DNA of 28,124 nt from Pseudonocardiaceae bacterium (GCA_035712045.1 DASTBN010000213.1:1-28124), one strand, 5' to 3'; positions 2,343 to 16,904 are shown, counted from the first letter of the stretch. The notes: generated by a model from the letters alone, not told the origin. Translations and numbers: made by a program.

Positions 2343-3199
2343 CGCGTTTCCGCGCTGCGCGATTCGTGCGGACCGTGGCGATCGCCGCGATCATCCTGTG
2401 GTCGCTTGCGCCGATCGCGCTGGGCGTGGTCACCAGCGTCTCGACGCAGGCCGACGTGCGGGCGATCCCGCTCCACTGGCTGCCCGATCATGTGACGATG
2501 GATCCCTACCGTGGGCTGCTCGGCGGTACCGCTGATATCCGCGCTGGCGGCACCGTCTCGGAGACCGGTGCCTTCGCCCAGGCGATGTGGAACAGCGCCT
2601 CGATCACGCTGATCTCGACGCTGGCAATCCTGTGTGTTGCGATCAGCGCGGGCTACGCGTTCGCCCGGCTGCGCTTCCCCGGCCGCAACGTGCTGTTTTG
2701 GGTGGTCGTCGCCACGGCCATCATTCCAGTGTTCACCCTCGTCATCGCACTGTTCCAGCTCCTGGCTGAGGCTGGCCTGATCGACCGCAAGCTCGGGCTG
2801 GTGCTGGTGTTCGTCAGCACGAGCACCCCGCTGGCGATGTGGCTGGTGCACAATCACGTCAAAGAGCTACCGACCGAACCGGAGGAGGCGGCCCTTCTCG
2901 ATGGCTGCACGCGCTGGCAAGCCTTCTGGCATGTCGTGCTACCCCAGATGCGATCGAGCATCGCCGCGCTCAGCGCAATCCTTGTGCTGTCAGTCTGGGG
3001 TGAGTTCCTCATTCCGTTGCTCTTGACCTCCACCAGCGCGAGCAAGCCCGTGGCGGTGCTCATCCCAGAATATGTTGGCAAGTACACGACGAACTACCCA
3101 CTGCTAGCGGCGGCGGGGGTGCTCGCGCTCCTGCCGCCCGCCGTCGTGGCTCTTGTCTTGAATCGCCATATTCGGGGGATGCTTAGTGGATCGTCCTAA
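2339..3199 (+). CDS. Carbohydrate ABC transporter permease (MalG/UgpE-like)
   Basis: AGYAFARLRFPGR motif, EAA loop EEAALLDGCTRWQAFWHVVLP, ATGA overlap with the previous gene. Confidence 0.95.
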   Translation: MTRFRAARFVRTVAIAAIILWSLAPIALGVVTSVSTQADVRAIPLHWLPDHVTMDPYRGLLGGTADIRAGGTVSETGAFAQAMWNSASITLISTLAILCVAISAGYAFARLRFPGRNVLFWVVVATAIIPVFTLVIALFQLLAEAGLIDRKLGLVLVFVSTSTPLAMWLVHNHVKELPTEPEEAALLDGCTRWQAFWHVVLPQMRSSIAALSAILVLSVWGEFLIPLLLTSTSASKPVAVLIPEYVGKYTTNYPLLAAAGVLALLPPAVVALVLNRHIRGMLSGSS

Positions 3200-4328
3200 C
3201 GCCGCCTCCACAAACGGAATCGTCCTCGAACGCGTCCGCAAGGAATTCCCCGGCGGGATCGTCGCGGTGCGCGACATCAGTCTGGAGGTCCACCCCAGCG
3301 AGCTCCTCGTCCTGGTGGGCCCGTCGGGCTGCGGGAAAACCACCACACTGCGCATGATCGCAGGACTCGAGGCGGTCACCGCCGGCGAGATCCGCATCGC
3401 CGGCCGCCTGGTGACCAATCTGCCGCCGCGGCATCGCAACGTGGCGATGATCTTCCAGAACTACGCTCTGTATGCGCACATGAACGTGCGGGCGAACATG
3501 GGTTTCGGGCTGAAAATGGCCGGCATGCCCAAACGCGAGATCCGCGCGCGAGTCGACCAGGCGGCCGGCATCCTCGGCCTGACCGACCTGCTAGACCGCA
3601 AGCCGCGTCAGCTGTCCGGCGGCCAGCGTCAACGCGTGGCCATGGGCCGAGCCATCGTCCGCGAACCCACGGCGTTCCTGATGGACGAACCACTGTCGAA
3701 CCTCGACGCGAAACTCCGTCTGGAGATGCGCGCTGAGATCGCCACCATCCACCGGCGCATCGGCGCACCCACCCTGTATGTCACCCACGACCAGACCGAA
3801 GCCATGACCATGGGTGACCGGGTCGCCATCCTTCGCGACGGAGCCCTCGAGCAGATTGGCACCCCCCTAGAGCTATACGAACAGCCCGCTAACGTGTTCG
3901 TCGCCGAATTTATTGGCTCGCCGGGGATGAACCTCCTGCCGGCGAAGCTTGACATCGACACCTTCGATGACGCCTGGTACGCCCGCCTCGGCGACTCCCG
4001 GCTACTGATTCCCCCGAAGGCCCGTGCCGCACTGCGGCCCTTCGCCGGTCACAGCGTGGTCCTTGGGCTTCGCCCGGAGGACTTCATGCCCAGCGAGCAC
4101 CTGCGCGACAGCCAGTCCCGAATCATCCAGGCAACAGTGACGCGAACCGAGTCGCTGGGCAGCGAATCGCTCGCCTACTTGTCGATAAACGGAATCGCCA
4201 ACTCGCAGCCGCTCCTGGCACGCCTGGATCGCCGCACCACGATCCAGAAGGACACACCCATCCTGATCGGCGTGGACATTGACCGACTGTATTTCTTCGA
4301 CCCCACAAACGGCACTACTCTCAAATGA
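3186..4328 (+). CDS. Carbohydrate ABC transporter ATP-binding protein (MalK/UgpC family)
   Basis: Walker A GPSGCGKT, signature LSGGQ, Walker B FLMDEP, YVTHDQ, FVAEFIGSP, and a C-terminal TOBE-like region. Confidence 0.97.
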   Translation: MDRPNAASTNGIVLERVRKEFPGGIVAVRDISLEVHPSELLVLVGPSGCGKTTTLRMIAGLEAVTAGEIRIAGRLVTNLPPRHRNVAMIFQNYALYAHMNVRANMGFGLKMAGMPKREIRARVDQAAGILGLTDLLDRKPRQLSGGQRQRVAMGRAIVREPTAFLMDEPLSNLDAKLRLEMRAEIATIHRRIGAPTLYVTHDQTEAMTMGDRVAILRDGALEQIGTPLELYEQPANVFVAEFIGSPGMNLLPAKLDIDTFDDAWYARLGDSRLLIPPKARAALRPFAGHSVVLGLRPEDFMPSEHLRDSQSRIIQATVTRTESLGSESLAYLSINGIANSQPLLARLDRRTTIQKDTPILIGVDIDRLYFFDPTNGTTLK

Positions 4329-4555
4329 ACACCCGGCGTAACCCTCGCGCGATGGCTAGGTCGCGGGCAGTGGCTCCGGCACGGTAGGCGCAGGCCATGG
4401 CTTGGATCATGTCGTCGGAGAGCCGTTCGTGAAGGCTCCACGGTGTCGCGGTGATCAATTCGATCCCCTGGCTACCGGTTCCGTGCGGCCGCGAGAACGC
4501 AAATATACCGGTCAGCGGCTTGCGTGGAGTGCGAGTAAGCGGTGAGTATCTCCAC
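4321..4555 (-). pseudogene. Degenerate small HTH-like ORF of the repeated att-like element (copy A)
   Basis: Minus strand reads VEILTAYSHSTQAAD...stop, then after a frameshift PWSLHERLSDDMIQAMACAYRAGATARDLA. This is homologous to copies B and C (PWSLRERLDEREIDELITA / PWSQRGRLDEREITELITAYRNSATAAFLA). Confidence 0.7.
4510..4555 (-). repeat. 46-bp att-like core, copy A
   Basis: ggtcagcggcttgcgtggagtgcgagtaagcggtgagtatctccac matches 15049-15094 at 43 of 46 positions and contains an internal GTGGAG/CTCCAC inverted repeat. Confidence 0.9.
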
Positions 4556-4667
4556 GGCCGAGTGTCTAGGCCTCTGACCTGGGTATCTCTGATTCTTAGG
4601 TGTGCTAGTAGGGTGGTGTAGGTCGTCTCGTCGCCGGCCTACGGCATTTCGTTTCGTTCACCACAAA

Positions 4668-4772
4668 CGGATCGCGCGTCGCCCGGTTCTGGGTGGCTTG
4701 ATCAACGAGTACGAACGAGCGGCGTAAAGCCGCTGCTCGGCAGGAGGTGACCGACTTCCGGAACCCCACAGG
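4668..4772 (+). mobile_element. 3' end and right terminus of an actinobacterial integrase-core (rve-type) IS transposase
   Basis: Reads RIARRPVLGGLINEYERAA* (4668-4727), a C-terminal motif I recognise from this transposase family, followed by a terminal-looking sequence ...ttccggaaccccacagg. Confidence 0.7.
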
Positions 4773-4996
4773 CCGATGATTTGGGTACCGCCGCGGCAGG
4801 ACAGCGTGCGCTGGGCCCGGGCGGGTCGTTGGTCGATCAGCGGAGCAGGGTCTGGCGGGCGAGCGCCTTGGAGGCGGGCGCGTTGGGCCGGGGTCAGAGT
4901 TAGCGGGATGGTGCGGGTTAAGACCCCGTCGATGATGACGTGGGCGACGGTGGTTTCCAGGCGCGGGGTGATGCGCCGCCCGGCGAATCGCTGGTC
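4772..4996 (-). mobile_element. Internal C-terminal fragment of an IS481-like transposase
   Basis: An unlisted minus frame reads QRFAGRRITPRLETTVAHVIIDGVLTRTIPLTLTPAQRARLQGAR...QRTLSCRGGTQIIG, resembling the C-terminal region of actinobacterial IS481-family transposases. It breaks off at the neighbouring IS end. Confidence 0.65.
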
Positions 4997-6011
4997 AGAA
5001 ATTCCCGCCGATGTCCAGCACCGGCTTGGTGGCGGTGCGGACCCCGCCGTCGGCGTCGGCCACAGCCGTCGCGATGTCGGAGGGCTTGTACCGGACTATC
5101 GCCGGCAACCGCAACGCCCCTGAGCTGAGCCGATCAAGCACCGTCGAGACAACGGTGACGGATTCGGCCAGAGGTGTGGTCTCGAGCCAGTGGAACAAGA
5201 ACCAGCCTTCGACTCGGGTGCTGCGGTAGATCATCGTCGGTGCGACGAGCGGCATCTCGAACGCCGACCGGTCGCTCTGCCGGTGTGAGGACAGCGCGCC
5301 GAACACAAGCAGCCGGCCTCCCGGGGCGAGCGTCTCAGCGAGCGTGGCGCCGACTCGCCCGGCGACGCAGTCGATCGCTTTGCGCGGGCCGCCGCGGGTC
5401 GCCTCGATCAGTTGCCCGGCCCAGTCCTGGTCCGTGGTGCACAACGTGATATCCGCGCCGAGCGCGGCGAGTTCGTCGATCTGGGCGCGTCGACGGACAA
5501 GGTTCACTGTGCGGAACCCCTCCGAGCGGGCGAGTTGCAGTATCAGCCGGCCGACGGTCGAGCCAGCCGCGGTTTGGGTGAGGAGTTCACCTGGCGCGAG
5601 GCGATGCTCGCCAACGGTGAGCATCCACGCCGCCACCGGATTGACGATGGCTTGTGCGGCGTCGTCGTCGCTCACCCCGTGGGGCACGACGACGAGCTGG
5701 CCGGCTGGGCACACGACCCGCTGCCGCCAGGTGCCGATGACGTTCAGCAGTACGACCCGGGTTCCGGGCACCGGCCCGCTCACGCCGGAACCAAGCTCCT
5801 CGACGACACCGACCGCCTCGATGCCGGGGCTGGCGGGTAGTCGCGGCTGGCGGCCGTAGCGGCCGCGGATGATATGCAGGTCCGAGGGGTGTACCGGGGC
5901 GAGCAGGATCCGGACCGCGACCTCTCCGGGTCCGGGCGCCGGATCGGGCAGCTCCCGCAGGCCGAGGACCCGCAATGGTTCGCCGTTGGTTTCGAACACA
6001 AAGGCTTTCAC
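4995..6011 (-). CDS. MDR-superfamily NAD(P)H-dependent oxidoreductase (zinc-ADH-like / enoyl or quinone reductase type)
   Basis: PVHPSD, PGIEAVGVV and TAAGSTVG nucleotide-binding motifs, with no catalytic Zn cysteines. Start moved to GTG 6011 (MKAFVFETNGEP), which is preceded by ACAGGAAAC. Confidence 0.9.
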   Translation of the reverse strand: MKAFVFETNGEPLRVLGLRELPDPAPGPGEVAVRILLAPVHPSDLHIIRGRYGRQPRLPASPGIEAVGVVEELGSGVSGPVPGTRVVLLNVIGTWRQRVVCPAGQLVVVPHGVSDDDAAQAIVNPVAAWMLTVGEHRLAPGELLTQTAAGSTVGRLILQLARSEGFRTVNLVRRRAQIDELAALGADITLCTTDQDWAGQLIEATRGGPRKAIDCVAGRVGATLAETLAPGGRLLVFGALSSHRQSDRSAFEMPLVAPTMIYRSTRVEGWFLFHWLETTPLAESVTVVSTVLDRLSSGALRLPAIVRYKPSDIATAVADADGGVRTATKPVLDIGGNF

Positions 6012-6143
6012 GATGTTTCCTGTGGGATCGGCTGGTGGCGTGAACGACGTGCTCAGACGCCCTCGACGGGGCGCGTGTCGCGCTCTGCGCCACCGTCCAC
6101 AACGGCCAGCGTCGATACGCATCGCTGTCTTACGCGGGCCACC

Positions 6144-6300
6144 GAGGAATTGTCAAGACCTGTGGATGAAGATCTTTTAGGTGGCGCCCGCAGCGACGGG
6201 CTGGCCGTCGGGGCGTTCGACCAGCTCCGGCCGGGCACCCTCGCGCACGATCTCATCGATCAACGACGACGAACCAGCGGTGGAGGCAACAATGCTGAGT
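6144..6300 (-). mobile_element. Internally deleted IS256-family remnant
   Basis: Minus strand reads LSIVASTAGSSSLIDEIVREGAR (IS256-type N-terminus) joined directly to ELVERPDGQPVAAGAT* (C-terminus), then a terminal-IR-like AAGATCTTCATCCACAGGTCTTGACAATTCCTC. Confidence 0.75.
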
Positions 6301-6690
6301 CCCTGCTACATGGCGGGTCAAGCACTACATCATCACCAGAAACAGCTATGGGCTGGCGCCGATGAGTCCTCACTTCAGGCATCGGCCGATGAGGTGAACG
6401 CTCAGACCGACACTCACTGCCGAGCAGCACAAGCAGAACAGGGCGATCATTGCCGAAGCTCGCGCACGGCTGCTCGGCAGCGCCAGGAAGGACATGGCGC
6501 GGCCTCGGTGGGTGCTGAGGCCAGGGCAACGAAGGGCCCACACAGCGGCGCGGCGCGGAGTCTCGTGCGAATCCGAACAGGATCCTTGATGACGGCGAGT
6601 TTGCCGCACTGGACTACGACGCGGGGTCTCCAGACGGGTCGGCAAGCCGCTGACTGCGCCTATACTCGCCGAAGCCAGCAGGTTGACACA

Positions 6691-6737
6691 GGTCAGCGGC
6701 TCGCATGGATGTGCGAGTACGCGGCACCACACCCCAC
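6691..6737 (-). repeat. att-like core, degenerate copy D
   Basis: Minus strand GTGGGGTGTGGTGCCGCG-TACTCGCAC-ATCCATG-CGAGCCGCTGACC has the same GTGG-N14-TACTCGCAC spacing and downstream GCCGCTGACC as copies A and C. Confidence 0.75.
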
Positions 6738-6910
6738 TCACACGCGCGGCGGTGTCCGCTTATGCCGATGAGAGCGCGCGGGGGAACCGTCTGTGTTCCC
6801 GGAGCGGGCCTGGGTTGAACGTGGGTGTTTGGCGCGTGAGTGTTGCGGCAGTGCTGTCGCAGCGGCGGGTGGGTTGCCGGCATGGGTGTCATTGGGCCGG
6901 ATCTTCTCGG

Positions 6911-8272
6911 TCAGGCATAGCTGAATAGCGGGGGGAGGATCAGGACCACGATCCAGGCCCACGCGGCGTATACCGGCAGGTAGCCGGTCTGCCAGTGCTC
7001 AAGGGCCGCGAACGGGGTGTGCCGGCGGGTGAACCTCAGCAGTAGCCACGCCGACCAGGCGAGGTTGGCCAGCAGGATGATGTTCTCGCCGAGTGCTGCG
7101 GCCTTGTTGGGTGTCGTGCCGTATGCGGTGATGCGCCCGGTGATCTCCAGGAGTACCAGCATGTCAATGGCCAGCGCGCTGAGTACGAGGGCGAGCTGCG
7201 GTTGGTCGGGGAGGCCGGGCGGGGCCAGCGGGTCGCGGGCTGAGATCGAGTAGAGCAGCAACCCCAGCACCACGACCAGCAGGAGGTCGGACAGGATCAG
7301 TGCTTCGCGCTCGAGGTCGATGCCAGCGCTGGTCCAGATGATGGCGGCGAGGAAGGCCAGCAGGACCGCGGTGAACAGCCGGGTGAGTACCGGGGCGATG
7401 TTCCCGGCCACACTCTGTTTGGCTTCGACGAGCCAGGCGGCCACGATGGTCGCGGCCGCGGCGCCGCAGGGCAGCAGCCACTGTGTGATGAACTTCTCCG
7501 GGTCGATCCCGATGGCGTGGAAGGTGCCGGTCATGAACGCGACGAGGACACCGCCGCCGAGGGCGATGAGGACGAAGCAGACGAACCACTCGCCGGTGAA
7601 GCGGATGAAGTCCATGCGCCGGCGGGACGAGCGCCAGTCGCCGGCCACATAGGCCAGGCCCACCACGAGCCACAGGGCGATGGGGAGGTGGATGCTGGTG
7701 ATGACCACCGACTGCGACTTCTGGGCCAGGGGGTAGGCGTTGGCCGCCGCGGCGGCGAGCGCGAACAGCGCCACCAGTATCCCGATCAGCGGGCGGCGGG
7801 CCCCGCGGCGGCTGGCCAGGAAGGCCGCCAGCCAGGGCAGCGCGAACAGGCTGGCGTTAGGCCCGTAGAACGAGCCGTCCCGCTCCAGCCTCATCCCGAA
7901 CAGCTCCGGCACCGTGACCGACACCGCCGCGCCCGCCGCGCAGAGGACCATCGCGAGCAGCTCACGCCGCGACCGGGTGCCCGCCGCCGGGTCCTCGGTC
8001 TCGCCGGTCAGCACCAGTTGCTTCCACAGCCGTTCCGAATGCTCCCGGGCGAACTCGCGGGACAACTCCTCCAGGCCACCCATGCGTTTGACCGCGATCA
8101 GGAACGCCTCGTCGGCGCGCAGGCCGAGTGCGACGAGCTCGTCGACACAACCGCGGAGATGGTCTTCGAGTTCGTCGGCGTCGCAGGGCCGCAGCTCCCG
8201 GCGGCGCTGCAGGTAGTGACGCCACTGCGCGAACCGCGCCTCCAGCTCGTCGGGACCCTCTAGCGCGCTCAT
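6911..8272 (-). CDS. Permease prefix domain 1 (HAAS-like)-containing membrane protein
   Basis: N-terminal DELEDHLR...EAFLIAVKRMG motif followed by many TM helices. The ATG at 8272 (MSALEG) overlaps the PadR stop (ATGA). Confidence 0.85.
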   Translation of the reverse strand: MSALEGPDELEARFAQWRHYLQRRRELRPCDADELEDHLRGCVDELVALGLRADEAFLIAVKRMGGLEELSREFAREHSERLWKQLVLTGETEDPAAGTRSRRELLAMVLCAAGAAVSVTVPELFGMRLERDGSFYGPNASLFALPWLAAFLASRRGARRPLIGILVALFALAAAAANAYPLAQKSQSVVITSIHLPIALWLVVGLAYVAGDWRSSRRRMDFIRFTGEWFVCFVLIALGGGVLVAFMTGTFHAIGIDPEKFITQWLLPCGAAAATIVAAWLVEAKQSVAGNIAPVLTRLFTAVLLAFLAAIIWTSAGIDLEREALILSDLLLVVVLGLLLYSISARDPLAPPGLPDQPQLALVLSALAIDMLVLLEITGRITAYGTTPNKAAALGENIILLANLAWSAWLLLRFTRRHTPFAALEHWQTGYLPVYAAWAWIVVLILPPLFSYA

Positions 8273-8643
8273 GCCCTGCCCCCCAGCGGGATCGTCCTCA
8301 ACGGCCTGAGATCGCCGGGGCCGGGCCAGATCTCCTTGAGCGCATCCACGACCGTGTCCCACTGGCGGCGTTGCTCGGCAAGCTCAGCCAGGCCCTGGCC
8401 GGTGATGCGGTAGTACTTGCGCCGCCGCCCCCCCGTGACCGGCTGCCAGCTCGACTCGACATAGCCCAGGCGCTCAAGCCGGTGCAGCAACGGGTAGAGC
8501 AGTCCCTCGGTCCAGTCCAGCTCGCCACCGGAGAGCTCGTTGATCTGTCTGAGGATGGCGTAGCCGTAGCTTTGCCCCCCGGCCAGGATGCCGAGCACCA
8601 TCGGCGTCGCCGAGGCGGCCACCAGATCCTTGGCTACCTTCAC
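8269..8643 (-). CDS. PadR family transcriptional regulator
   Basis: SYGYAIL...GLLYPLLHRLE...RRKYYRIT winged-helix pattern, in the usual pairing with a permease-prefix membrane protein. Confidence 0.95.
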   Translation of the reverse strand: MKVAKDLVAASATPMVLGILAGGQSYGYAILRQINELSGGELDWTEGLLYPLLHRLERLGYVESSWQPVTGGRRRKYYRITGQGLAELAEQRRQWDTVVDALKEIWPGPGDLRPLRTIPLGGRA

Positions 8644-8825
8644 CTGACCTCACCCGTCCACACCCTAGAAGTACGATGCATAGTACTGCCAGGTATTTTC
8701 GGGCACAACGACCCGGTCACGCGTCCGTGCCGGCGGTATCCGCGATCCCGCCACGGCACAGACGCACTCTTCCGCCGCTGACCGCGCGCGACGAACGCCG
8801 GGCATGAGAAGGGGCTGCGGATGCG

Positions 8826-8975
8826 TCGCCGTCGCGGCAGGCGGTGATCAGCTCGTCGATCTCTCGCTCATCGAGGCGCTCGCGCAGGCTCCACGGGCGC
8901 CTCGTGCCCGGTCTCACGGCGCGTCCAGGGGTGGTGAGCGCCATGGTGTGGCAAAGCCGCAGGCCAGCGGCCTTG
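8826..8975 (-). pseudogene. Truncated small HTH-like ORF of the repeated element (copy B)
   Basis: 8831-8975 aligns along its length with 14917-15062 (shared ggcggtgatcagctc, cgctcatcgaggcgc, ggctccacgg, ccatggtg, aaagccgcagg). It translates ...LRLCHTMALTTPGRAVRPGTRRPWSLRERLDEREIDELITACRDG. Confidence 0.8.
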
Positions 8976-8976
8976 T

Positions 8977-9116
8977 ATGGTCGCCGAGGACCGCGAACTG
9001 CGGCTGTGTGGCTACGAGGTCTACCGCTTCGGCGGCGCTGAGCTCACCGATTCCCAGCCACTGGCAAGCGGCTCACCGCCTTCTTCGACTGGCTCGCCGA
9101 GCGCTACTTCGCCTGA
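8977..9116 (+). pseudogene. C-terminal remnant of an AbiJ-related / Vsr-like nuclease-domain protein
   Basis: MVAEDRELRLCGYEVYRFGGAEL, then after a frameshift GKRLTAFFDWLAERYFA*. This matches the C-terminal motif I recall from actinobacterial AbiJ_NTD3-containing proteins. Confidence 0.6.
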
Positions 9117-9331
9117 CTCCGCCGTTCAACCACATGCATGTTCGAAGTGCATGCGATGCCCGGAGTTGCGGCAGAGCTACTGAAGCTCTCTGCTCAACCC
9201 ACTACGTGAACAGGACCGCCGGCCGCTTCCGGTGTGACTTCTGGGGCGCGCGTGAACACCGGGCAAGAGCGGCGAGGATCGATGCGACGTGTGGTTGTTC
9301 CTCCCTGGGACCGACGGATGAGGTGACGGGG

Positions 9332-9357
9332 GGTTTCTGCAACGTGCGTTGTGGGTA
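9332..9357 (+). promoter_or_regulatory. SigF/SigB-type promoter (GGTTT-N16-GGGTA)
   Basis: GGTTT at 9332-9336 and GGGTA at 9353-9357, ending 10 nt before the GTG at 9368. This matches the actinobacterial SigF-type consensus. Confidence 0.6.
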
Positions 9358-9367
9358 GAGACAGCTC

Positions 9368-10002
9368 GTGTTTTTGGTGCGGCCACCGGGGGTGTATCGG
9401 GTCGGTAGTGATACCTCCTTGTTGGTTGATGTCCTGCGGGAAGGTGGTTACGCGGTGGGGCGGCGCGTGCTGGATCTGGGAACCGGCACCGGTGCGGTGC
9501 CGCCTCGGTCACCGCGGTGGATCTGTCGCTGCGGTCAGTCGTGGCCGCCTGGCTTAACAGTCGCTTGCGGGGGTTTCGTGCCGGATGTACTGGGGTGATC
9601 TGTGTGGGCCCGGGGCGGGTCAAAGCTTTGATTTGATTGTGGCTAATCCGCCTTATGCTCCGGCTGCCAGCAATGTCTTGTCCCGGCATCGGATGAGCCG
9701 ATGCCGGGATGCTGGCTGGCCTAGATGGGCGGATGCTGCTGGATCGCGTCTGTGCGGAAGGGCCTGCTTTGCTTTCCCCGGAGGGGATGATGTTGCTGGT
9801 GCATTCCGCGGTCTGTGATGAGGACATCACCGGCAAGCGCTTCGCGGGCACGGGCCTGCGGGCTGAGGTACTGACCCGCCGCAGGGTGGCTTTCGGGCCG
9901 GTGATGCGCGCCCGGGCCACCATGCCGCAAGCCTGCGGATTGATCGAATCCGGGCAGCGGGAGGAGCAGCTGGTGGTCATCGGGGCCCGCCGTGTGCCCT
10001 GA
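9368..10002 (+). pseudogene. HemK2/MTQ2-family SAM methyltransferase, multiply frameshifted
   Basis: PPGVY...DTSLL, VLDLGTGTG, DLIVANPPY and GRMLLDRVC...MLLVHS lie in different frames (ORFs 9368, 9585, 9709). Confidence 0.85.
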
Positions 10003-10172
10003 GCCATGGCGGCGCCGGGTCAGCCTGACCGAGGAGGGACCGGGGTTAGTGCAGGGTCCGAGCGAGGTTGTCCTGCCTGATGGCCGCAGCTCTGATCGGG
10101 CGGTGAGCGCGCTGTGCACATGCCGCCGCAGCCGCCGTTACCCGTTTTGCGACACCAGACAACGTCGGCGGC
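9992..10172 (+). pseudogene. CDGSH iron-sulfur domain protein, degenerate
   Basis: GPGLVQGP...ALCTCRRSRRYPFCDT motif. The terminal His ligand reads Gln (DTRQ) and the 3' end is joined to the next gene remnant. Confidence 0.75.
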
Positions 10173-10340
10173 GAGCCGGAGCTGGCCGTTGATGTGGTTT
10201 TCGGTATCCAAGTCAGCACCCTGCTGGCCGAGCGGCTTTCCGAGCTGCTGCGGCACTGGGCCCAGAACGAGCCCACGCTGCGCCATCCCCTTCCCGACAC
10301 CCCGCTGGTACACCGACTGCGGAACGTGATCTGGGGGTGA
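10173..10340 (+). pseudogene. C-terminal remnant of an iron-containing redox enzyme family (heme-oxygenase-like) protein
   Basis: An unlisted frame reads EPELAVDVVFGIQVSTLLAERLSELLRHWAQNEPTLRHPL...*. This family normally follows HemK2 and CDGSH genes in actinobacteria. Confidence 0.65.
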
Positions 10341-10430
10341 CGGTCCGGACTGGATCGGGCACCGCTCGCACCGCGTCGCCGTGAGCACCGCCCGGTTCAC
10401 ACCTCCGTGCAGGGGGACTGCATTGAAAGG

Positions 10431-11632
10431 ATGGTCGAGATGGTTGAGCAGCTGATCGCCAAACGGGTTTTGGCGGTGCAGCGGATCCTGCATCCCTTCT
10501 TCGAAACGGTGCTGCGCCCCCCGATCCAGGGCGGGCAGACAATGATCGCCAATTTCCTGACCGGTGATCCGCAGGAGCTGCCCCCGTCCGGGTTCGTCGA
10601 GACGCTGCGGCGATACAGCGTTCCCACCTCCAGCGACTGGTTGCCTACCGTTTCCAGCACGAGCCCGCCCGTCGGGCAGCCGCAGTCTCGCTGGGTGCTG
10701 AGCTGGGCGCGGACTTCACCGCCGAGGACATATTCCTGACTCGCGGTGCTGGTGGGGCGATTGCGCTGGCCTTGCACACCGTGGTCGATCCGGGTGATGA
10801 GGTCGTCTTCTTGAGCCCGCCGTGGTTTTACTATGAAGCAATGATCCTCGCCAGCGGCGCCACGCCGGTTCGGGTCCGGCTCGAACCTCCGGCCTTTGAT
10901 CTGGACATCGAGGCCATTGTCGCGGCGCTGGGACCACGCACCCGAGCCGTGCTGATCAATACTCCGCACAACCCGAGCGGGCGGATCTACCCGGCAGCTG
11001 CCCTGCGGAGATTGGCCGAAGGCCTGGCCGAAACGGCGGGCCGCTATGGCCGGCCGATTTGGGTGATTTCCGACGAAGCGTACAGCCGGATCCTGTTCGA
11101 CAATAACCGCTTCGTCAGCCCCGGCCTCTTCCACCCGTATTCGATTCTCGTCCATACCTACACCAAAAGCGCGCTGGCACCGGGGCAACGGCTAGGCTAC
11201 CTCGCTTTGGCGCCCGGCCTACCACGGGCCGAGGCCATGCGCACAGCCCTATTCCATGCCCTGTTCTCCTCTGGGCTGGTGATGCCCGACGCGGTCATGC
11301 AGTACGCCCTGCCCGACATCGATGGCCTTCTCGTCGACATCGCCACGATCCAACGCCGCCGCGACCGCATGGTGGCAGTATTGCGGGAACAGGGTTACCA
11401 GCTTCACATCCCGCAGGCGACCTTCTACCTCCTGCCCCAGGCCCCCATAGCCGATGACCACGCCTTCTGCGCATTCCTGGCCGAGCAAGGAATTGCCGTG
11501 CTCCCCGGCCAGGTCATCGAGCTACCCGGCTACTTCCGCATCTCCTTAACGGCCACCGACGAAATGGTGGAACAGTCACTTCCCATTTTTGCTGAGGCCA
11601 TCGAACATGCCCGGTCTCGCTGGCCTGCGTGA
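10431..11632 (+). pseudogene. PLP-dependent aminotransferase class I/II with one frameshift
   Basis: Start at ATG 10431 after GAAAGG. A single missing T near 10641 (gactgg-tt-gcc, expected DWFAY) joins ORF 10407 to ORF 10772. Motifs INTPHNPSG, SDEAY and TYTKS...GQRLGY are present. The frameshift could be a sequencing error. Confidence 0.85.
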
Positions 11633-12291
11633 TGGCCGATGCGTCATCGGATAGCAACACACGTAGACCGTCCCGTACGGGCGGGCGCATCGAGATCATG
11701 TGAGAGATCAACTCCGTAGACTCCTCGACGTAGTCCAGGATCTCCATCGTGATCAAGATGGTGGTAGCGGAGTGGAAGGCCGCCGACACCGGGACCTTCG
11801 GGGGAGTGCCAGCTGCCCTGAGACATCCTGGTTGGGCCCGTGGCGGATCGTCCATCAGCTCGCCGGGTTCTTCTCAAAGACATATTGTGGCCGTTGTGGA
11901 GGTCGGCTGCGCCGCTCCTCGTGCCGCCCTGAGCCTCGGTCATGGGAACACTCCAGCATCCGAAGCCCTTCTATAGATATGAGAAATCGACTATAGAGAC
12001 TGGTGTGTGATGGTGCGGAGAGATCTTGTCGTCGTGAGAGCAGCACTGGACGAGCTGTTCCGGTTGGCCGCCATCCCGGTGAGCGGGCAACCAAGCGCGG
12101 TACCCGGGACGAGATCATCTGCGCGCTCAGGGTGATGTTGATGGACGGGAACCATCCTCGACGCCCGCTTCCGACCCGGCGGGCAGTCCGGTCGCTTCTG
12201 ATTCCCGGCCCGGGAATCAGTGCCGGTGTGGCCGACGATGCCGGTGGCACCAGATCTTCAGCACGGAACGCGCGACCCCGTGCGAGGCCAT

Positions 12292-12341
12292 CAGGTACTG
12301 AGGCGGAGACTGAAACCAGGTACTGAGACGGAGACTGAAAC
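12292..12341 (+). repeat. 25-bp tandem duplication
   Basis: caggtactgaggcggagactgaaac / caggtactgagacggagactgaaac (1 mismatch), ending immediately before the GTG at 12342. Confidence 0.9.
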
Positions 12342-13625
12342 GTGGACAAGGCGTCTGTCATCCGACGGTCTGTTGCCGGCGCCGGTCTGGGTCTGACCGG
12401 GATCTACGCCTACAACGTGGCCCGATACCGGCGCGCCGCAGGCCAGGGATTCGATCTTCCCCACCCGCCCGCAGTGGGCAGTAACGAGTTCGCGCACCTG
12501 ATCGAGGCGCTGGCCCAAGCGCCCCGCCGGGACGGCAACCGAATCATGATCCTACGCAACGGCTGTGAAATCTTCCCCGCCATGCTGGAGGCCATTAGCT
12601 CCGCCCGGAAGTGCATCGACTTTTCCACCTACATCTACTGGACGGGAAACATCGCCCCGCGGTTCGCCGACGCTTTGGCCACCCGGGCCGCTGAGGGCGT
12701 CGAGGTGAACGTGCTTCTCGATGCGCAGGGCAGCGCCAAGATGGACCGCGGCCTCATCGAACACATGCGCGGCGCCGGAGCGACCGTTATCTGGTTTCGT
12801 CCACCCCATTGGTATAATGTGCAAAAATTCAACAAGCGCATGCACCGACGGATTCTGGTTATCGATGGCAGAATCGGCTTCATGGGTGGCGTCGGGATCG
12901 CTGAGCAGTGGGACGGAAACGCCGAGGACCCCGAACACGAGCGGGAAACCCACCTTCGCCTTGAAGGTCCAGCTGTCCGGGACCTGCAGGGTGGTTTCCT
13001 CGAGAACTGGACGGAGGGGACCTCCTCACTGCTCTCCGCCGCGCATTTCCCCGACCTCCACGTGTTTGACGATGGGATCCCGGCCCAGGTGGCCCGGACC
13101 GTGTCCACCGGCGGGACCAGGGGGCTGGAGGAGATGCTCTGGGCCGCTGTGGCCGGGTCCAAGGAACGCCTTTGGGTGACCACGGCCTTCTTCGCCCCGC
13201 GACGCGCTTTCATCGACGCGCTGTGTGACGCCGCGAGCCGGGGAGTCGACGTCCGCATCCTCACCGGGGGCCCCCACCAGGACAAGCAGATCGCCCGCGA
13301 GGCAGGTCACCGTTCCTACGAGAAATTGCTCAAAGCCGGCGTGCGGATCTTCGAGTACCAACAAGCCAAGCTCCACGCTAAGGTAATCACGATCGATGGC
13401 ATCTGGGCAAACATCGGCTCCAGCAACTTCGAGAACCGCTCCCTCGCACTCAACGACGAAATCAACCTCTCTCTCCAGCACACCAACGTGGTGGCCGAAC
13501 TCGAACAACACTTTCGCGAGGACCTGGAAGTCTCACAAGAGCTGAACTTGGAAAGCTGGAAGCGTCGGCCACCAGCAAAGCGAGCTCGGGAATACGCGAC
13601 CGAGCTGATCCGCCAGTCACTATAG
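12342..13625 (+). CDS. Cardiolipin synthase-like phospholipase D (ClsB-type)
   Basis: Two PLD motifs (HRRILVIDG...GG and HAKVITIDG...IGSSN), LRNGCEIFPAML, and a short N-terminal hydrophobic anchor. Confidence 0.9.
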   Translation: MDKASVIRRSVAGAGLGLTGIYAYNVARYRRAAGQGFDLPHPPAVGSNEFAHLIEALAQAPRRDGNRIMILRNGCEIFPAMLEAISSARKCIDFSTYIYWTGNIAPRFADALATRAAEGVEVNVLLDAQGSAKMDRGLIEHMRGAGATVIWFRPPHWYNVQKFNKRMHRRILVIDGRIGFMGGVGIAEQWDGNAEDPEHERETHLRLEGPAVRDLQGGFLENWTEGTSSLLSAAHFPDLHVFDDGIPAQVARTVSTGGTRGLEEMLWAAVAGSKERLWVTTAFFAPRRAFIDALCDAASRGVDVRILTGGPHQDKQIAREAGHRSYEKLLKAGVRIFEYQQAKLHAKVITIDGIWANIGSSNFENRSLALNDEINLSLQHTNVVAELEQHFREDLEVSQELNLESWKRRPPAKRAREYATELIRQSL

Positions 13626-14419
13626 CGTCAACATCCCGGTGCTCCGGAGCGCTTGGCGTGATGGCTCGGTGTGTCCGCTGTGCGTGAGCGGTGCTCGCCT
13701 CAGCAGTCAAAGGCGTAGCTCGTCAGCGCACCGCCTGACTGAATCGCCCGGTGCCGGGGACGACTCGCATACCGGGTTCGTGAGCGCGACCGGGGAACCC
13801 ATCAGTGGAAACATCGACGGGTGCCCGGGCCAACCTCACCAGTTTTGCCCGAAAGCCTCGCTCGCGGAGCCGTATGGCACCCCGTGCTGGAAGCACGGCC
13901 GTGACTATGACCGCACGACTAGAGGAGTTCCTCGGCCAGGTCAACAACCGCGTGGCAGAGTCCGCCGTAGTGGGATTGGGCCGCACAGGGTGCACTGGGC
14001 CTGGTGCTAGAGGTCGCACGTGGAGGATTAGTCGGCCGTATCCATCAGTCCTTTATTGATCGAGAAAGCGAGCATTCAGCGACGCGGAAGCCCAATTCAC
14101 GGTCGCCGAAACCCTCCTCTTTAACTGCGTCACGAACGGATCTGAGGTTTCGAAGGAAACTCGAGGGCTGGTCATAGCGCACCCTCGACCCCATGCATGA
14201 GCCTGTGGTTTGTTTGCATGGTCATCGGTGTTGGATACGGAGTAGAGCGCACCCGGCGGGAAAGACCTACTATCGCGGCCTTGATGGCTGTGGCTTTTGG
14301 TCATGCGGGTGTCCCAGATGGCGCGCCTTTGCGGGAATCTCTAGGAGTTCGCGCGCCCTGCCTGACCGCCCTTTATGGTGGGGGTCGCTCAGCAGGTGGT
14401 GGTGTAGCGGCAGGCGACC

Positions 14420-14739
14420 ACTGTGGCTTCGGTTCCCTGGTGTGGGTCTACGCGGGTGAAAGCTTCCCCGCTCACCTGCGCTCGCTGGGGTCCAGCGCGA
14501 TGCTCACCTCCGACCTCGTCGCCAGCGTCATCGTCGCGGCATTTTTCCTGACGTTGCTGCGGCAGCTCAGCGGCACCGGGATCTTCGCGATTTTCGGTGC
14601 GCTGGCTGTGGCCGGGTTCGTGTTCGTGTACCGGCTCGCTCCCGAGACCAAAGGCCGGCGTCTGGAAGAAATCCACACCTACTGGGAAAACCGCGCTCAG
14701 TGGCCGCAGACGACCGATGACGCCAACAGAGCCGACTGA
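14420..14739 (+). pseudogene. C-terminal fragment of a sugar-porter MFS transporter
   Basis: GFGSLVWVYAGESFPAHLRS...PETKGRRLEEI are sugar porter TM10-12 motifs. The N-terminal three quarters are absent. Confidence 0.85.
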
Positions 14740-14769
14740 ACGGACACGGCAGGAGAGGCCCCCGGGGAT

Positions 14770-14805
14770 GAAGGGCTACGATACGTAGTAGCCGGTGTAG
14801 CCTTC
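14770..14805. terminator. Imperfect hairpin between convergent ORFs
   Basis: gaagggctac...gtagccttc arms lie between the MFS fragment and the small HTH ORF. There is no U-tract. Confidence 0.3.
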
Positions 14806-15096
14806 CTAAGATCCCCGGATGGATGGCGCGCGGCAGACACCAGCGGTGCGCAGGAGGCGTTTGACGCTACTGAGACTCACGCCGTGAGCCGTGGCGAGAA
14901 AGGCGGCGGTGGCGCTGTTGCGGTAGGCGGTGATCAGCTCGGTGATCTCGCGCTCATCGAGGCGCCCGCGCTGGCTCCACGGCCGCTTCGCGCTCAGTCC
15001 CGCGGCGCGCACGGGGCTGACAAATGCCATGGTGCAGCAAAAGCCGCAGGTCAGCGGCTTGCGTGGAGTGCGAGTAAGAGGTAAGTAGCTCCACAC
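14806..15096 (-). CDS. Small HTH-like protein of the repeated element (copy C, most complete)
   Basis: RLDEREITELITAYRNSATAAFLATAHGVSLSSVKRLLRTAGV has a helix-turn-helix pattern. Compared with copy B there is one extra base near 15040, so the N-terminal frame is probably shifted from the ancestral VELLTSYSHSTQAADL. Confidence 0.65.
   Translation of the reverse strand: MWSYLPLTRTPRKPLTCGFCCTMAFVSPVRAAGLSAKRPWSQRGRLDEREITELITAYRNSATAAFLATAHGVSLSSVKRLLRTAGVCRAPSIRGS
15049..15094 (-). repeat. 46-bp att-like core, copy C
   Basis: Matches 4510-4555 at 43 of 46 positions. A 10-bp direct repeat CGCAGGTCAG occurs at 15045-15054 (overlapping the left end) and 15116-15125. Confidence 0.9.
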
Positions 15097-15499
15097 CGTC
15101 GACTAGACTGATTAGCGCAGGTCAGTCGGCTTATTGGGGTCGGTCGGGCAGTTCTCATCAGTCTGTCGTTTCCGTTGGTGCTCCCTTCGATCTCGCCTGC
15201 TTTACTTCTGGTTGGTCACGTTTCGCGTGTTTTCTGGAGTGGTTCTCGCCTCTTCCATTGCTCTGATTACGCGTTCTCGCGGGTTGTGATCAAGGGGCGA
15301 GGGGTTCGTCGGGAGGTGTGCCCATGACGCGGCGCGCCTCCAGGCTCAGGAGCATGTCACCGTCAGCGACTGGAGGGGGCTGGATCACGACGCTCTCTGG
15401 GCCTAGGTAGATCAGGGGCGTCGGTGATCCCGGGTTTTCCCATCGGATGCCGACCTCCCAGTTCGGCCCGGGTGAGCCTGCTTACCGTCGGCTGGGCAT

Positions 15500-16060
15500 C
15501 CTCAGCCGGGCCTCCATGATCCTCAAGCTGCTGGACGACGCCCGTCCTGTGTTCAACCGGCGAGGTATCGGAAAATAGCCCGCGCGCTTCAGCGGCGCCG
15601 AAGGCTGGCGCATCGACCGGATCCGCGCCTACATCGACAACGGGCACACCTGGCTCGTCCACCAGCCACACCCCGGTGGCCACCTTCACCCCTCCGCTCC
15701 GCCGACCCTGACTACGCCGACGGCTGGCCCGATGGCCCCGACACCGGCCTCTACATCTACCGCATGGCGGTCTGCCGCACCCACGCCGGGCACGACCTCG
15801 GCGGCCACATCCTGGACTGGGCCAGCGCACGCGCCGCCGCACTCGGCTACCGCTGGCTACGCCTGGACTGCCACCGGGACAACTACGCACTCCAGGGCTA
15901 TTACAAGGCACGCGGCTTCGACCGGGTGGGCACGCTCGTGCGCACCATCGACGACCCCATATCCGGCGACACCAACGGCCGTTACACCCGCAAGTCAGGA
16001 GCCCTGTTCCAGCGACCAGCGGGCTCCATCCTCATCCCCCACCCGCACCGTGCGAAGGAA
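15500..16060 (+). pseudogene. GNAT-family N-acetyltransferase, with stop and frameshifts in the N-terminal half
   Basis: ILKLLDDAR...RRGIGK*PARF...RIRAYIDNGHTWLV, then LYIYRMAV...GHDLGGHILDWA...WLRLDC...ALQGYYKARGF (GNAT motifs A and B). Confidence 0.8.
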
Positions 16061-16066
16061 CCCGCC

Positions 16067-16291
16067 ATGACCCTCGACCGGTACGACCCCCACCACGAAG
16101 CCGCCATCTGGCAACAAGCATCCGACCTGGTCGCCAGCCTCAAGACCCACGACCAGCCACACGACCCCAACGCCTGGAACACCGCCCTCGATCAAGCCGC
16201 CAGGCTCCTCGAACGCAAAGCGCTAGAGACCCGCCAGCGCAACGGCATGTACTACCGGGTCCTCACAGACAACAACCGATCACGGCACTGA
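16067..16291 (+). CDS. Hypothetical protein, 74 aa
   Basis: ATG 16067 is preceded by AAGGAA and starts the helical sequence MTLDRYDPHHEAAIWQQA.... It is in frame with the GNAT relic, with no stop between them. Confidence 0.55.
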   Translation: MTLDRYDPHHEAAIWQQASDLVASLKTHDQPHDPNAWNTALDQAARLLERKALETRQRNGMYYRVLTDNNRSRH

Positions 16292-16646
16292 GCAGGTCTT
16301 CATCCCCCACCTCAAGATCGCCAGGAGTCAGCACCGCGCCACACCGGGCGGCGAGCACACCCACCGGCCCGCCGGCGGGCACCCTCACCGCGTGCACAGT
16401 GCGTCTCGTCTCACCCACGACCCCAGCGCGGTAACGAACCAGCAGCACCAACCCGGCAAGCCCGGCCCGGTCCAGGTGGGCGTCACTCACCAGCATCCCT
16501 CCCGCCGGTCGTGGCCGATCCTCTCGAGCCCTGGCCAGAGCGCGGCCGCGAGCCGCTTGTACCGATCGTGCCCGCTGGACGTCAGGCTCATCCGCTGCAA
16601 TCCCGTCAGGTCCCGCTGCTCGGCGCCCTTGATATCGGGTGGTCAA
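16263..16646 (-). pseudogene. Truncated conserved actinobacterial hypothetical protein
   Basis: LVLLVRYRAGVVGETRRTVHAV...AARCGAVL resembles a small Cys-containing family I recall near XRE regulators. The expected C-terminal Cys pair appears lost. Confidence 0.4.
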
Positions 16647-16904
16647 GCTATGCCAGGAGTGGTCGGGCTATGCCGGTGTCGATGAGGTGGCACGAAGATC
16701 CCCCTTTGATGGAGATACACCCGACCAGATTCGTCTCGTAGCCCGTGTCTGTCCGAGTCCGTCCCGCTTGCCCGGGAGGGCCTGGATGCGTCAGGCTGGT
16801 GGCACTGAGGGCGTCCTCGTGATACGGGCTGCCGTATACTGTTCCTTGGCGAATGGCTATACGGTGCCCCGGTCGCTCGGGTTGCCGGGTGAGGTCGCCG
16901 CGCA

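Follow-up and report, generated by a model that had tools for sequence, protein, structure and literature searches.

Integrase-less cassettes joined at a tRNA-Ala/tmRNA acceptor-end site: a probable decayed tandem array in a Pseudonocardiaceae bacterium

Results

Related sites and gene blocks in the window

We analyzed a stretch of 28,124 nt from a Pseudonocardiaceae bacterium (GCA_035712045.1 DASTBN010000213.1:1-28124), hereafter the window, for a site that an earlier note had described as four same-oriented copies at the boundaries of unrelated gene blocks. Direct reading of the minus strand confirmed the motif at 4510-4555 (copy A), 6691-6737 (copy D) and 15049-15094 (copy C), together with a 5'-truncated copy B that has only the 3' half of the motif (8962-8975, minus strand). 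Copies A and C were the same at 43 of 46 nt (93.5%; BLAST E 2.6e-12), and the strict motif pattern had no chance match in 100 shuffles. The 46-nt site turned out to be merely the start of a unit of ~530 bp, made up of a non-coding arm of ~150 nt, a core and a 105-codon HTH ORF. We placed the copies with an nhmmer profile of the full unit, in which GTGGAG begins at model position 215. All four were placed by this profile, and they form a single site family, as had been proposed.

Pfam matches bore out the earlier labels for the ABC ATPase, MDR oxidoreductase, PadR/membrane protein, aminotransferase, PLD and MFS genes, while those of an AbiJ relic and HemK2 had no family match. No tyrosine or serine recombinase domain (PF00589, PF00239) was found on the window contig, in agreement with the earlier statement that the window holds no intact recombinase, and the window contained neither a tRNA nor an intact arm. 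The window had no Rfam 15 match at the gathering score, and the full unit had none at E up to 1. The features, with the cassettes numbered from the copy C side, are as follows:

3186-4328, ABC ATPase gene (Pfam), adjoining the array at copy A
4321-4609, minus strand, copy A region, an attP-like junction; nhmmer 4609-4366 = model 161-403
4609-4556, minus strand, copy A, last ~55 nt of the arm including the hairpin
4555-4548, minus strand, copy A, core GTGGAGAT
4539-4529, minus strand, copy A, box
4610-6687, cassette 3 cargo, an MDR oxidoreductase gene and a dispersed repeat
6122-4995, minus strand, MDR-type zinc alcohol dehydrogenase family gene (Pfam), cassette 3
6688-6778, minus strand, copy D region, a collapsed junction of an arm relic and a box/motif relic; nhmmer, two short relics, 6778-6749 = model 71-100 and 6726-6688 = model 226-263
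6779-8758, minus strand, cassette 2 cargo, PadR and membrane protein genes in the same direction as copy B
8362-6911, minus strand, 483-aa membrane protein, cassette 2
8643-8269, minus strand, PadR regulator (Pfam), cassette 2
8759-8978, minus strand, copy B region, an ORF-module relic; nhmmer 8978-8827 = model 245-395 and 8829-8759 = model 518-584
8979-14762, cassette 1 cargo, with several truncated genes and several ORFs without a family match
10772-11632, plus strand, class I/II aminotransferase fragment (Pfam), cassette 1
12342-13625, plus strand, PLD-family protein (Pfam), cassette 1
14197-14739, plus strand, MFS transporter fragment (Pfam), cassette 1
14763-15096, minus strand, copy C region, core and ORF module, a distal-type junction (foreign flank, core, ORF); nhmmer 15096-14763 = model 213-546
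15094-15087, minus strand, copy C, core GTGGAGCT
15078-15068, minus strand, copy C, box CTTACTCGCAC
15030 (ATG) to 14806 (stop), minus strand, copy C, HTH ORF of 74 aa (P0002)

Past the box, copy A has a divergent N-terminal stretch followed by the HTH ORF to about residue 70, where the ORF runs into the convergent ABC ATPase gene, which ends at 4328, and is cut short. In copy C, one additional base after the motif puts the first 21 codons of the family out of frame. Copy B is cut at model position 245, so that core and box are gone and only CAAGGCCGCTGGCC is left of the motif; it has also lost an internal segment (model 395 to 518) and carries a frameshift, but keeps the 3' region of the unit. 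Copy D is a heavily deleted junction in which the segment between the relics, core included, is replaced by ~22 nt, and its GTGG does not align with the core. Since B and D have no core, we regard them as former junctions and not as usable sites.

The flank of the array (15097-16765) had no homolog in 60 relatives except for one partial match (G022), and no empty site for the window array was found. The nearest syntenic loci had neither a unit nor a tRNA. Three soil metagenomes were the public runs that held the locus; as contigs at ~2x they had no joint at the core, at a depth too thin to bear on circles. A single joint in those runs (4987 to 7745) was disregarded, because one side was 21 nt and the likeness was below 95%. 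Read through its homology with other genomes, the window array appears to be decayed and detached from a tRNA.

Anatomy of the ~530-bp unit

Conservation extended from ~150 nt upstream of GTGGAG to ~60 nt beyond the stop codon, and the outer ends of the unit lay near model positions 60-70 and 584-596. These two ends have a common direct repeat of ~30 nt, which is not inverted. From one end to the other, the unit comprises an arm that ends in a hairpin, the core, 8 nt and the box CTTACTCGCAC, with the HTH ORF starting at the GTG of the core; the arm carries a box of its own, GGGACTCGCACACC. The core of 7-9 bp, GGTGGAGCT, is complementary to the 3' acceptor ends of tRNA-Ala and tmRNA and has the consensus GGTGGAG(C/G)T. 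The earlier note had put the crossover at TACTCGCAC, which proved to be wrong: the joint falls in GGTGGAG, and TACTCGCAC is a conserved flanking box 8 nt to one side of the core. In the core-adjacent hairpin, two-sided changes kept the pairing in 9 of 13 pairs, which was matched by 0 of 500 shuffles. The box or a close variant was present 7-8 nt past the core in 5 of 7 arm-less flanks (non-coding tmRNA and tRNA-Ala(GGC)), where by our own calculation ~0.006 per site would be expected by chance. This recurrence in non-coding flanks indicates that the box acts at the DNA level, and it may be a recombinase half-site. The idea that the 46-nt motif is a degenerate 3' half of tRNA-Ala or tmRNA found no support beyond the 8-nt core, where 20-80% of shuffles reached the local alignment score.

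The motif corresponds to the first 16 codons of the 105-codon HTH ORF. Its translation, V-E-L-L-T-x-Y-S-H-S-x-Q-A-A-D-L, begins a 105-aa family with 115 homologs, and the serine at codon 10 uses all four third-position bases. Residues 41-84 were modelled confidently as an HTH, while the N-terminal 24 residues had low confidence. Full-length members of the family had sub-threshold matches to HTH_23, HTH_58 and HTH_7; the window copies had no matches in NCBIfam and Pfam, and a fold search with the HTH model returned generic HTH matches only, at E above 0.2. Synonymous divergence was lowest in the motif codons (dS 0.19 versus 0.26-0.58 elsewhere), where third positions were conserved as much as first and second positions and dN/dS was 0.74. 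For the HTH ORF dN/dS was ~0.6, indicating that many copies may be decaying and that the activity may be ancient. The HTH protein could be a regulator or a directionality factor.

Junctions in related genomes

The relatives were Pseudonocardiaceae genomes assembled from metagenomes, and nearly all the data came from fragmented bins. Searching 68 records with nhmmer gave 115 matches, among which two partial classes recurred. Arm-only matches ended at model 214-224 (9 or more cases) and ORF-only matches began at model 212-217 (14 or more cases); the coincidence of these positions indicates a break at the core. Four site types were found: the empty tmRNA site, the tmRNA or tRNA-Ala joined to the arm at the core, the ORF end joined to native tmRNA flank at the core, and the arm-core-ORF arrangement between stacked cassettes. 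Relatives thus had the full set of attB, attL, attR and attP-like junctions, in support of the earlier proposal of tandem accretion by site-specific recombination.

Arm and core adjoined complete tRNA-Ala(CGC) genes in two records (L019 and L026) and a complete tRNA-Ala(GGC) gene in a third (L034, from genome G009, which is flagged as unpublished). They also adjoined tmRNA, with the gene complete, in four genomes (L071, L072, L078 and L088); in a fifth such genome (L050) the tmRNA was cut by the contig end. In L059 and L064, tRNA 3' fragments came after the arm and core. The unit was always antiparallel to the RNA gene. At the tmRNA locus of G007, an arm scar is all that is kept.

The empty site was seen in G002, where no unit intervenes between the tmRNA (L086) and its native flank. 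Past the ORF module, L018 has CCTCCACCA and after it native tmRNA flank; the repeat measures only 7-9 bp. The G002 native flank was homologous to the DNA beside the L018 core over 255 nt (77.6%) and again, at a greater distance from the core, over 519 nt, and this homology places the L018 island between tmRNA and its native flank. As in tDNA-integrating islands, the 3' end of the RNA gene is restored, a repeat stands at the far boundary and a relative has the empty site; an integrase of the island's own beside an att end was not found on the window contig or in the three cassettes beside a complete tRNA-Ala gene.

Arrays, cargo and synteny

The profile scan of relatives gave copies that were clustered, sat at synteny breakpoints and had different cargo at the same locus. 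They were co-oriented in 30 of 30 records with at least two copies, as are the four in the window, which the earlier note had correctly read as pointing the same way. Across 38 intervals, drawn from many genomes, neighboring cores were 0.5-9.1 kb apart (median 2.6 kb), and a genome had up to about ten copies. Cargo lay on both strands and included metabolic, regulatory and toxin-antitoxin genes. Three cassettes beside a complete tRNA-Ala gene carried an FAD oxidoreductase, a thioredoxin-reductase-like/methyltransferase set with a regulator, and PPK2, respectively; their cargo contained no recombinase and showed no remnants of replication, conjugation or phage functions. At the same tRNA, different genomes had different cargo. 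The synteny of G000 (contig C569), G006, G007 and G008 ended within 2-3 nt of the 3' end of tRNA-Ala(CGC), past which an integrase was present in two genomes and the arm with differing cargo in the other two. The same synteny break occurred at tRNA-Ala(GGC) and tmRNA.

Candidate recombinases

A census of tyrosine and serine recombinases in six genomes found none that was consistently adjacent to the arrays. A 459-codon open frame for a tyrosine integrase converges on tRNA-Ala(CGC) in G000 (C569) and G006, where it is joined at the same core. L032/L083 contain a truncated copy of that integrase, fused to a unit at model position 224. A relative with 35% identity to this integrase is present in a distant genome (L100), where it comes after a homologous core-box-HTH ORF and an excisionase-like ORF. 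These arrangements are consistent with recombination by a tyrosine integrase acting in trans, possibly of the family at tRNA-Ala(CGC) of this genome. Another integrase, beside a unit in G004 (contig C18, L077), was dropped as the cognate enzyme because it had no relatives near other units.

Discussion

Proposed origin of the array

We consider it probable that positions 4321-15096 of the window are a decayed tandem array of small integrase-less cassettes, which entered site-specifically at one att-site family that targets the acceptor 3' end of tRNA-Ala(CGC), tRNA-Ala(GGC) and tmRNA. Support for this tandem-accretion reading comes jointly from the classes of junction, the empty tmRNA site, the common orientation of the copies, the variation in cargo and the breaks in synteny. 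The ~530-bp arm-core-box-ORF unit would be the site on the mobile side (attP-like). On one side, integration would fuse the arm with the tRNA or tmRNA gene, whose 3' end would thereby be restored and whose terminator would then be the hairpin; on the other side, the end of the ORF would meet what had been the flank downstream of that gene. Recombination of later arrivals with the resident core would produce arrays of a single orientation that read flank, core, ORF, cargo, arm, core, ORF, cargo, arm, core, tRNA, with arm-core-ORF units as the cassette junctions. In the window, C would be the distal junction, A and D internal junctions and B a core-less ORF relic; the tRNA-proximal end would have been lost, leaving the ABC operon next to copy A. 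Against this reading, the core-less copies B and D could be deletion fragments instead of separate accretion events, a core of 7-9 bp is short for a tDNA-integrating element, and no integrase is consistently linked to the units.

Alternative readings

It could be argued that the motif is simply the conserved 5' coding end of paralogous small HTH genes, and that the arrays are diverged tandem duplications with rearrangement and have no role in recombination. The motif does translate and heads a family of 115 homologs, with the free third position at Ser codon 10, a confident HTH fold at residues 41-84 and the sub-threshold HTH_23, HTH_58 and HTH_7 matches. We nevertheless find this reading improbable: arm-only and ORF-only copies break within the same 8-10 nt, the arm meets each of three different tRNA-like genes precisely at the 3' end, tmRNA sites are seen both empty and occupied, and the box recurs in non-coding tRNA flanks. 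The coding pattern itself also speaks against it, given third positions in the motif as conserved as the first and second ones (dN/dS 0.74) and a low-confidence model for the N-terminal 24 residues. Insertion of the whole unit as a small non-autonomous MITE-like element with a target preference, the cargo being ordinary chromosomal DNA, would account for the many copies per genome, their fairly constant size and defined outer ends, the direct repeat common to these ends and the zero-cargo arrangements. However, the unit has no terminal inverted repeats, no transposase was found, and co-orientation in every multi-copy record is not expected of a cut-and-paste MITE. Moreover, the unit is repeatedly split at the internal core into halves that lie kilobases apart in fixed order and orientation, one adjoining tRNA or tmRNA and the other native flank, which makes a MITE-like origin very improbable.

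Two further readings concern the size at which the intervals were mobile. They might be stumps of full-size elements (prophage, ICE or IME) that lost integrase and transfer genes and were never mobile at cassette size, and we hold this to be possible although somewhat unlikely. The many truncated genes and IS-like scars in the window intervals point in this direction, as do the integrase C-terminus relic fused to the unit in L032/L083, the arm scar at the G007 tmRNA locus and the elements with an integrase that, in G000 and G006, occupy the same tRNA-Ala(CGC) core. Spacing tight around 2.6 kb across the 38 intervals argues otherwise, as do the retention of the same HTH ORF and arm in every cassette and the metabolic or regulatory nature of the intact cargo seen, free of replication, conjugation and phage remnants in the three tRNA-Ala-adjacent cassettes. 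We also put forward, tentatively and as rather unlikely, that units of 1-6 kb are true mobile cassettes, each of them a small circle made up of an arm, a core, the HTH gene and between one and three genes of cargo, and that they are captured serially at tRNA-Ala/tmRNA by a trans-acting tyrosine integrase. On this view, the integrase would use the box CTTACTCGCAC as its half-site, the HTH protein would serve the cassette as a directionality or regulatory factor, and such cassettes would amount to a tRNA-anchored functional analogue of the integron across an uncultured Pseudonocardiaceae genus.

Comparison with known systems

An integron-like array, which the earlier note had offered as one reading, was rejected. 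Small co-oriented serial sites that separate cargo of one to three genes, with toxin-antitoxin pairs in the cargo, do recall integron arrays. However, there is no IntI, no attI or Pc platform and no attC-type site; cargo genes run both ways, arrays in relatives end at a tRNA or tmRNA anchor, the cargo is set apart by the ~530-bp unit, which is conserved in sequence and contains an ORF, and the same HTH gene is present in every cassette.

The accretion reading has closer parallels among tDNA islands. The tandem islands of Islander/TIGER (PMC4383910) likewise integrate at tRNA/tmRNA 3' ends and restore the gene, have a displaced copy of the target end at the far boundary and form tandem co-oriented islands through repeated use of the site. 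The present islands differ in their joint of 7-9 bp at the extreme acceptor end, in the use of three RNA genes by one site family and in their size of 0.5-9 kb without an integrase. In Dehalococcoides, tandem islands downstream of ssrA (tmRNA) are bounded by direct repeats of its 3' end, with the sequence beside each repeat also conserved (PMC3146451). Fifteen of these have no integration module and were proposed to be cis-mobilizable elements that spread by accretion; the islands insert into the T-loop, have repeats of 20 bp and use DsiB/DsiA, a CcrB-like serine recombinase module (PMC3146451). The present units, in contrast, are joined at the acceptor end, have a tyrosine integrase as candidate enzyme and each contain an HTH ORF that begins in the core.

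The cassettes also resemble the CIMEs of the accretion-mobilization model of streptococcal ICEs (PMC5704250), in that they are att-bounded, have no recombination or transfer genes and stand in tandem with related elements. CIMEs are decay products of ICEs or IMEs, usually with one or two per site (PMC5704250), whereas a genome here has as many as about ten copies, in arrays spaced at ~2.6 kb, and no partner ICE was identified. Tycheposons of Prochlorococcus (bioRxiv 10.1101/2020.12.28.424599) are similar in the tRNA-targeted cargo that piles up in islands with adaptive metabolic genes, and in the partial tRNAs and degenerate remnants scattered within these islands. Tycheposons, however, carry their own tyrosine recombinase and replication genes, unlike the integrase-less cassettes here, and as far as tested there was no sequence relation.

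We regard the system as a form of site-specific tRNA-end integration, with small integrase-less cassettes at tRNA-Ala/tmRNA in an uncultured soil actinobacterial genus. The locus illustrates how accessory genes pile up in a poorly known lineage, with one short site, common to two tRNA-Ala genes and tmRNA, as the docking point. The unit profile together with the core offers a simple way to mark where islands begin and end in fragmented metagenome bins, whose assemblies break at these repeats. Should the cassettes be individually mobile, they would represent a second, independent route to integron-like gene capture and would provide, from high-GC actinobacteria, a compact att/integrase pair; otherwise, the locus would be one at which accretion and decay at tDNA sites are well resolved.

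Some features fall outside this scheme. Empty (zero-cargo) cassettes exist, and these, like the ~30-nt end repeat of the unit, are not explained by the simple model. The dispersed repeat of ~110 nt in cassette 3 (4658-4776) has at least 8 further copies in the genome and forms a separate repeat family.

Conserved unit around the motif

We re-read the motif in the sequence and found it on the minus strand at 4510-4555 (copy A), 6691-6737 (D) and 15049-15094 (C), as first reported from the sequence alone. A and C were identical at 43 of 46 bases, while B was indeed truncated and kept the motif 3' half alone (8962-8975). A pattern search of 100 shuffles gave 0 chance matches. Translation of the motif yielded V-E-L-L-T-x-Y-S-H-S-x-Q-A-A-D-L, residues 1-16 of a family of ~105-aa proteins, and the same small ORF followed the motif in A, B, C and a further copy on contig C281; B and C also had 139-146 nt downstream of the motif in common. 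The family comprised 115 homologs, all from Pseudonocardiaceae/Pseudonocardiales metagenome bins and soil metagenomes. Residues 41-84 were confidently predicted to form a three-helix HTH. Family members gave sub-threshold matches to HTH_23, HTH_58 and resolvase-HTH, and the structural neighbours were generic only.

We aligned the DNA of 48 related loci from species-representative genomes. In most copies conservation began ~150 nt before GTGGAG, and it continued to ~60 nt past the stop codon, delimiting a unit made up of an arm, the core GGTGGAG(C/G)T, 8 nt, a box and the HTH ORF. The 46-nt motif corresponds to core, 8 nt, box CTTACTCGCAC and ~19 further nt, and a related box, GGGACTCGCACACC, lies in the arm. 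The resulting profile (613 positions, with GTGGAG beginning at 215) had 115 matches in 68 records, among which two partial classes recurred: arm-only copies ending at model positions 214-224 and ORF-only copies starting at 212-217, which puts the break at a single point, the core. In 9 of 13 pairs of the hairpin between arm box and core, both sides had changed with the pairing intact; on the strand of the tRNA, this hairpin would be positioned to act as terminator of the tRNA or tmRNA gene once restored. A ~30-nt repeat, about GCTCA-CGGCATGAG-GG-CGT, is common to both outer ends of the unit (3' region and arm start). At L066:4244-4639 (= L048:7291-7686) and L019:4300-4430 the ORF 3' region runs directly into an arm through one repeat copy, and these arrangements are "empty" ~0.5-kb cassettes; at other loci cargo sits between two repeat copies. 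At locus L042 the ORF module was in three collinear pieces (2403-2473, 4000-4253, 5957-6043) separated by insertions of ~1.5 and ~1.7 kb, so the unit is itself a target for other mobile DNA.

Units adjoin tRNA-Ala and tmRNA genes

Arm-only copies run directly into the reverse complement of a tRNA-Ala or tmRNA gene. The adjoining sequence was a complete tRNA-Ala(CGC) gene at L019 and L026, a complete tRNA-Ala(GGC) gene at L034, tRNA-Ala 3' fragments at L059 and L064, and the tmRNA gene at L071, L072, L078/79, L088 and L050 (gene cut by the contig end). L034, the sole basis for the full-gene tRNA-Ala(GGC) junction and for the PPK2 cargo, comes from genome G009, which is flagged unpublished. GTGGAGCT is the complement of AGCTCCAC, the tRNA-Ala acceptor 3' end, and units adjoining tmRNA carry GTGGAGGT, matching ACCTCCAC of tmRNA. 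The following site types were recovered, and the sole segment common to all four was CTCCACC(A).

Site types at the RNA genes
Empty site (attB): tmRNA of genome G002 (L086); tmRNA, then native flank, without a unit
Proximal junction: arm-only loci (L019, L026, L034, L059, L064 and the tmRNA loci); tmRNA or tRNA, core, arm
Distal junction: L018; ORF module, CCTCCACCA, native-type flank
attP-like: full units; arm, core, ORF

The distal flank of L018 matched the native flank of G002 over 255 nt (77.6% identity), and synteny was found again in a 519-nt block farther out. The tmRNA of G007 was followed by only a 116-nt arm scar, after which native synteny with G002 resumed, and we read this as an island subsequently deleted. 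Besides its full tmRNA gene, genome G008 had a further, incomplete copy of the 5' end (126 nt, 98% identity) on another contig, at G008:C36:16582-16707.

Non-coding DNA after tmRNA (G002, G003, G006) and after tRNA-Ala(GGC) (G003 and contig C697 of G000, the genome of the window) likewise had the box, or a sequence close to it, 7-8 nt past the core. Such a box was present in 5 of 7 arm-less flanks examined, where we calculated a chance expectation of ~0.006 per site, and at the L018 distal junction the core is flanked by two boxes that face one another. Among 19 intact copies, motif codons had the lowest synonymous divergence (dS 0.19 versus 0.26-0.58 elsewhere), third positions in the motif were conserved as much as first and second ones, and dN/dS was 0.74 in the motif and ~0.6 over the whole ORF. 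We infer that the box is a putative protein-binding half-site that the ORF overlaps incidentally. A test for a decayed tRNA 3' half in the remainder of the 46-nt motif gave no significant result.

Synteny breaks and cargo

Homology among G000:C569, G006, G007 and G008 at tRNA-Ala(CGC) spanned the tRNA and its 5' side and ended no more than 2-3 nt from the tRNA 3' end. Past this point G000 and G006 had a tyrosine integrase; G007 had an arm, an FAD oxidoreductase and an ORF module; and G008 had an arm, a thioredoxin-reductase-like/methyltransferase gene with a regulator, and a full unit. The break at tRNA-Ala(GGC) was equally sharp, and at tmRNA homology continued through the arm and then ended. 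Copies were co-oriented in 30 of 30 records with at least two matches, and core-to-core spacing was 0.5-9.1 kb (median 2.6 kb, n=38). The earlier note had asked whether the sites are co-oriented and clustered, coincide with synteny breakpoints and enclose varying cargo; these results bear that out, and neither of its refuting outcomes, the random scatter of a simple dispersed repeat or breakpoints in relatives that fall elsewhere, was seen. A PhdYeFM/YoeB toxin-antitoxin pair was among the unit-adjoining cargo in 6 loci (L011 at 4325-4836, L018, L049, L050, L051, L056), directly upstream of the unit in L011, L049, L051 and L056.

The array in the window

Under the unit model, the window reads along the minus strand from C to A as follows.

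15096-14763, minus strand: C, distal-type junction
14762-8979: cargo 1, with an MFS fragment, PLD, an aminotransferase fragment and others
8978-8759, minus strand: B, ORF relic without arm and core
8758-6779: cargo 2, PadR and a membrane protein
6778-6688, minus strand: D, collapsed junction of arm relic and box relic
6687-4610: cargo 3, MDR-type oxidoreductase and an unrelated dispersed repeat
4609-4321, minus strand: A, junction retaining core, box, a truncated ORF and, of the arm, the final 55 nt
below 4328: convergent ABC operon

The window is the complete contig C213 of a metagenome bin (870 contigs, 4.67 Mb), and the tRNA-proximal end of the array is missing from it. No tRNA genes were found in the window and no Rfam families matched. 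The flank beyond C (15097-16765) had no homolog in 60 relatives except one partial match (G022) and is itself accessory DNA. The first flank part with homologs in related genomes was the region of a GAF-ANTAR gene (~16766-17600); this intact regulator (16905-17636) and an anti-sigma-factor antagonist (STAS) gene (17672-18364) lie just beyond the array. The dispersed repeat (~110 nt, 4658-4776) is unrelated to the unit and truncates the arm of A. It recurs at least 8 more times in the genome (78-88% identity), on the other contigs C325, C843, C651, C828, C563, C803, C682 and C867, and could be an insertion-sequence end. The start of the PLD-family gene at 12342 is immediately preceded by a 25-nt unit (CAGGTACTGAGGCGGAGACTGAAAC) tandemly duplicated in perfect register (12292-12341), the second copy being 96% identical.

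Candidate recombinase and relation to known systems

The contig carried no tyrosine or serine recombinase domain, in line with the earlier note, which had seen no intact cognate recombinase. Our best lead for the recombinase of the cassettes is a tyrosine integrase from a 459-codon open frame, which converges on tRNA-Ala(CGC) in G000:C569 and G006 (84% identity) and is joined there at the same core as the units. Its last codons, CTCGGTGG, resemble the arm end plus core, and a box-like stretch comes next. At L032/L083 a truncated copy of the integrase (86% identity) was fused straight to a unit at model position 224. Locus L100 comes from G071, a well-assembled genome of a distant member of the order. 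There a homologous GTGGAGCT, N8, CTTACTCCAAC begins an HTH ORF; at 8400-10406 this ORF, with its core and box, is followed by an excisionase-like ORF, then an integrase with 35% identity to that of G000:C569, and a tRNA 3' fragment in reverse complement ending in GGAGCCACCA. The element is possibly an autonomous cassette relative. These observations suggest an ancestral HTH-xis-int module of which the cassettes would keep the HTH gene only.

High-copy units were confined to the genus of the window among the genera searched, and elsewhere in the order 12 of 300 genomes showed matches, all of them weak and single or few in number. The suggestion of an integron-like array had to be dropped, since the defining integron parts are absent. 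CIMEs, att-flanked elements without an integrase that reportedly spread by accretion, are an established precedent. Tandem islands at tRNA/tmRNA genes are established as well (Islander, PMC4383910), the Dehalococcoides ssrA islands are a precedent for tandem tmRNA islands and att-flanked integrase-less accretion (PMC3146451), and tycheposons are counted among the related systems (bioRxiv 10.1101/2020.12.28.424599). Set against these systems, the core here is very short, lies at the extreme acceptor end and is common to three RNA genes; the cassettes are small and uniform in size; a conserved 0.5-kb unit has an HTH ORF starting within the core; and copy number reaches ten BLAST matches to the unit per genome.

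Located 2.7 kb upstream of a unit on a soil metagenome contig, L005:1-1202 encodes a Phage_integrase-domain protein of 634 aa and then a DUF6262 protein, a layout that we take to resemble the TnpB/TnpC pair of Tn554-type transposons.
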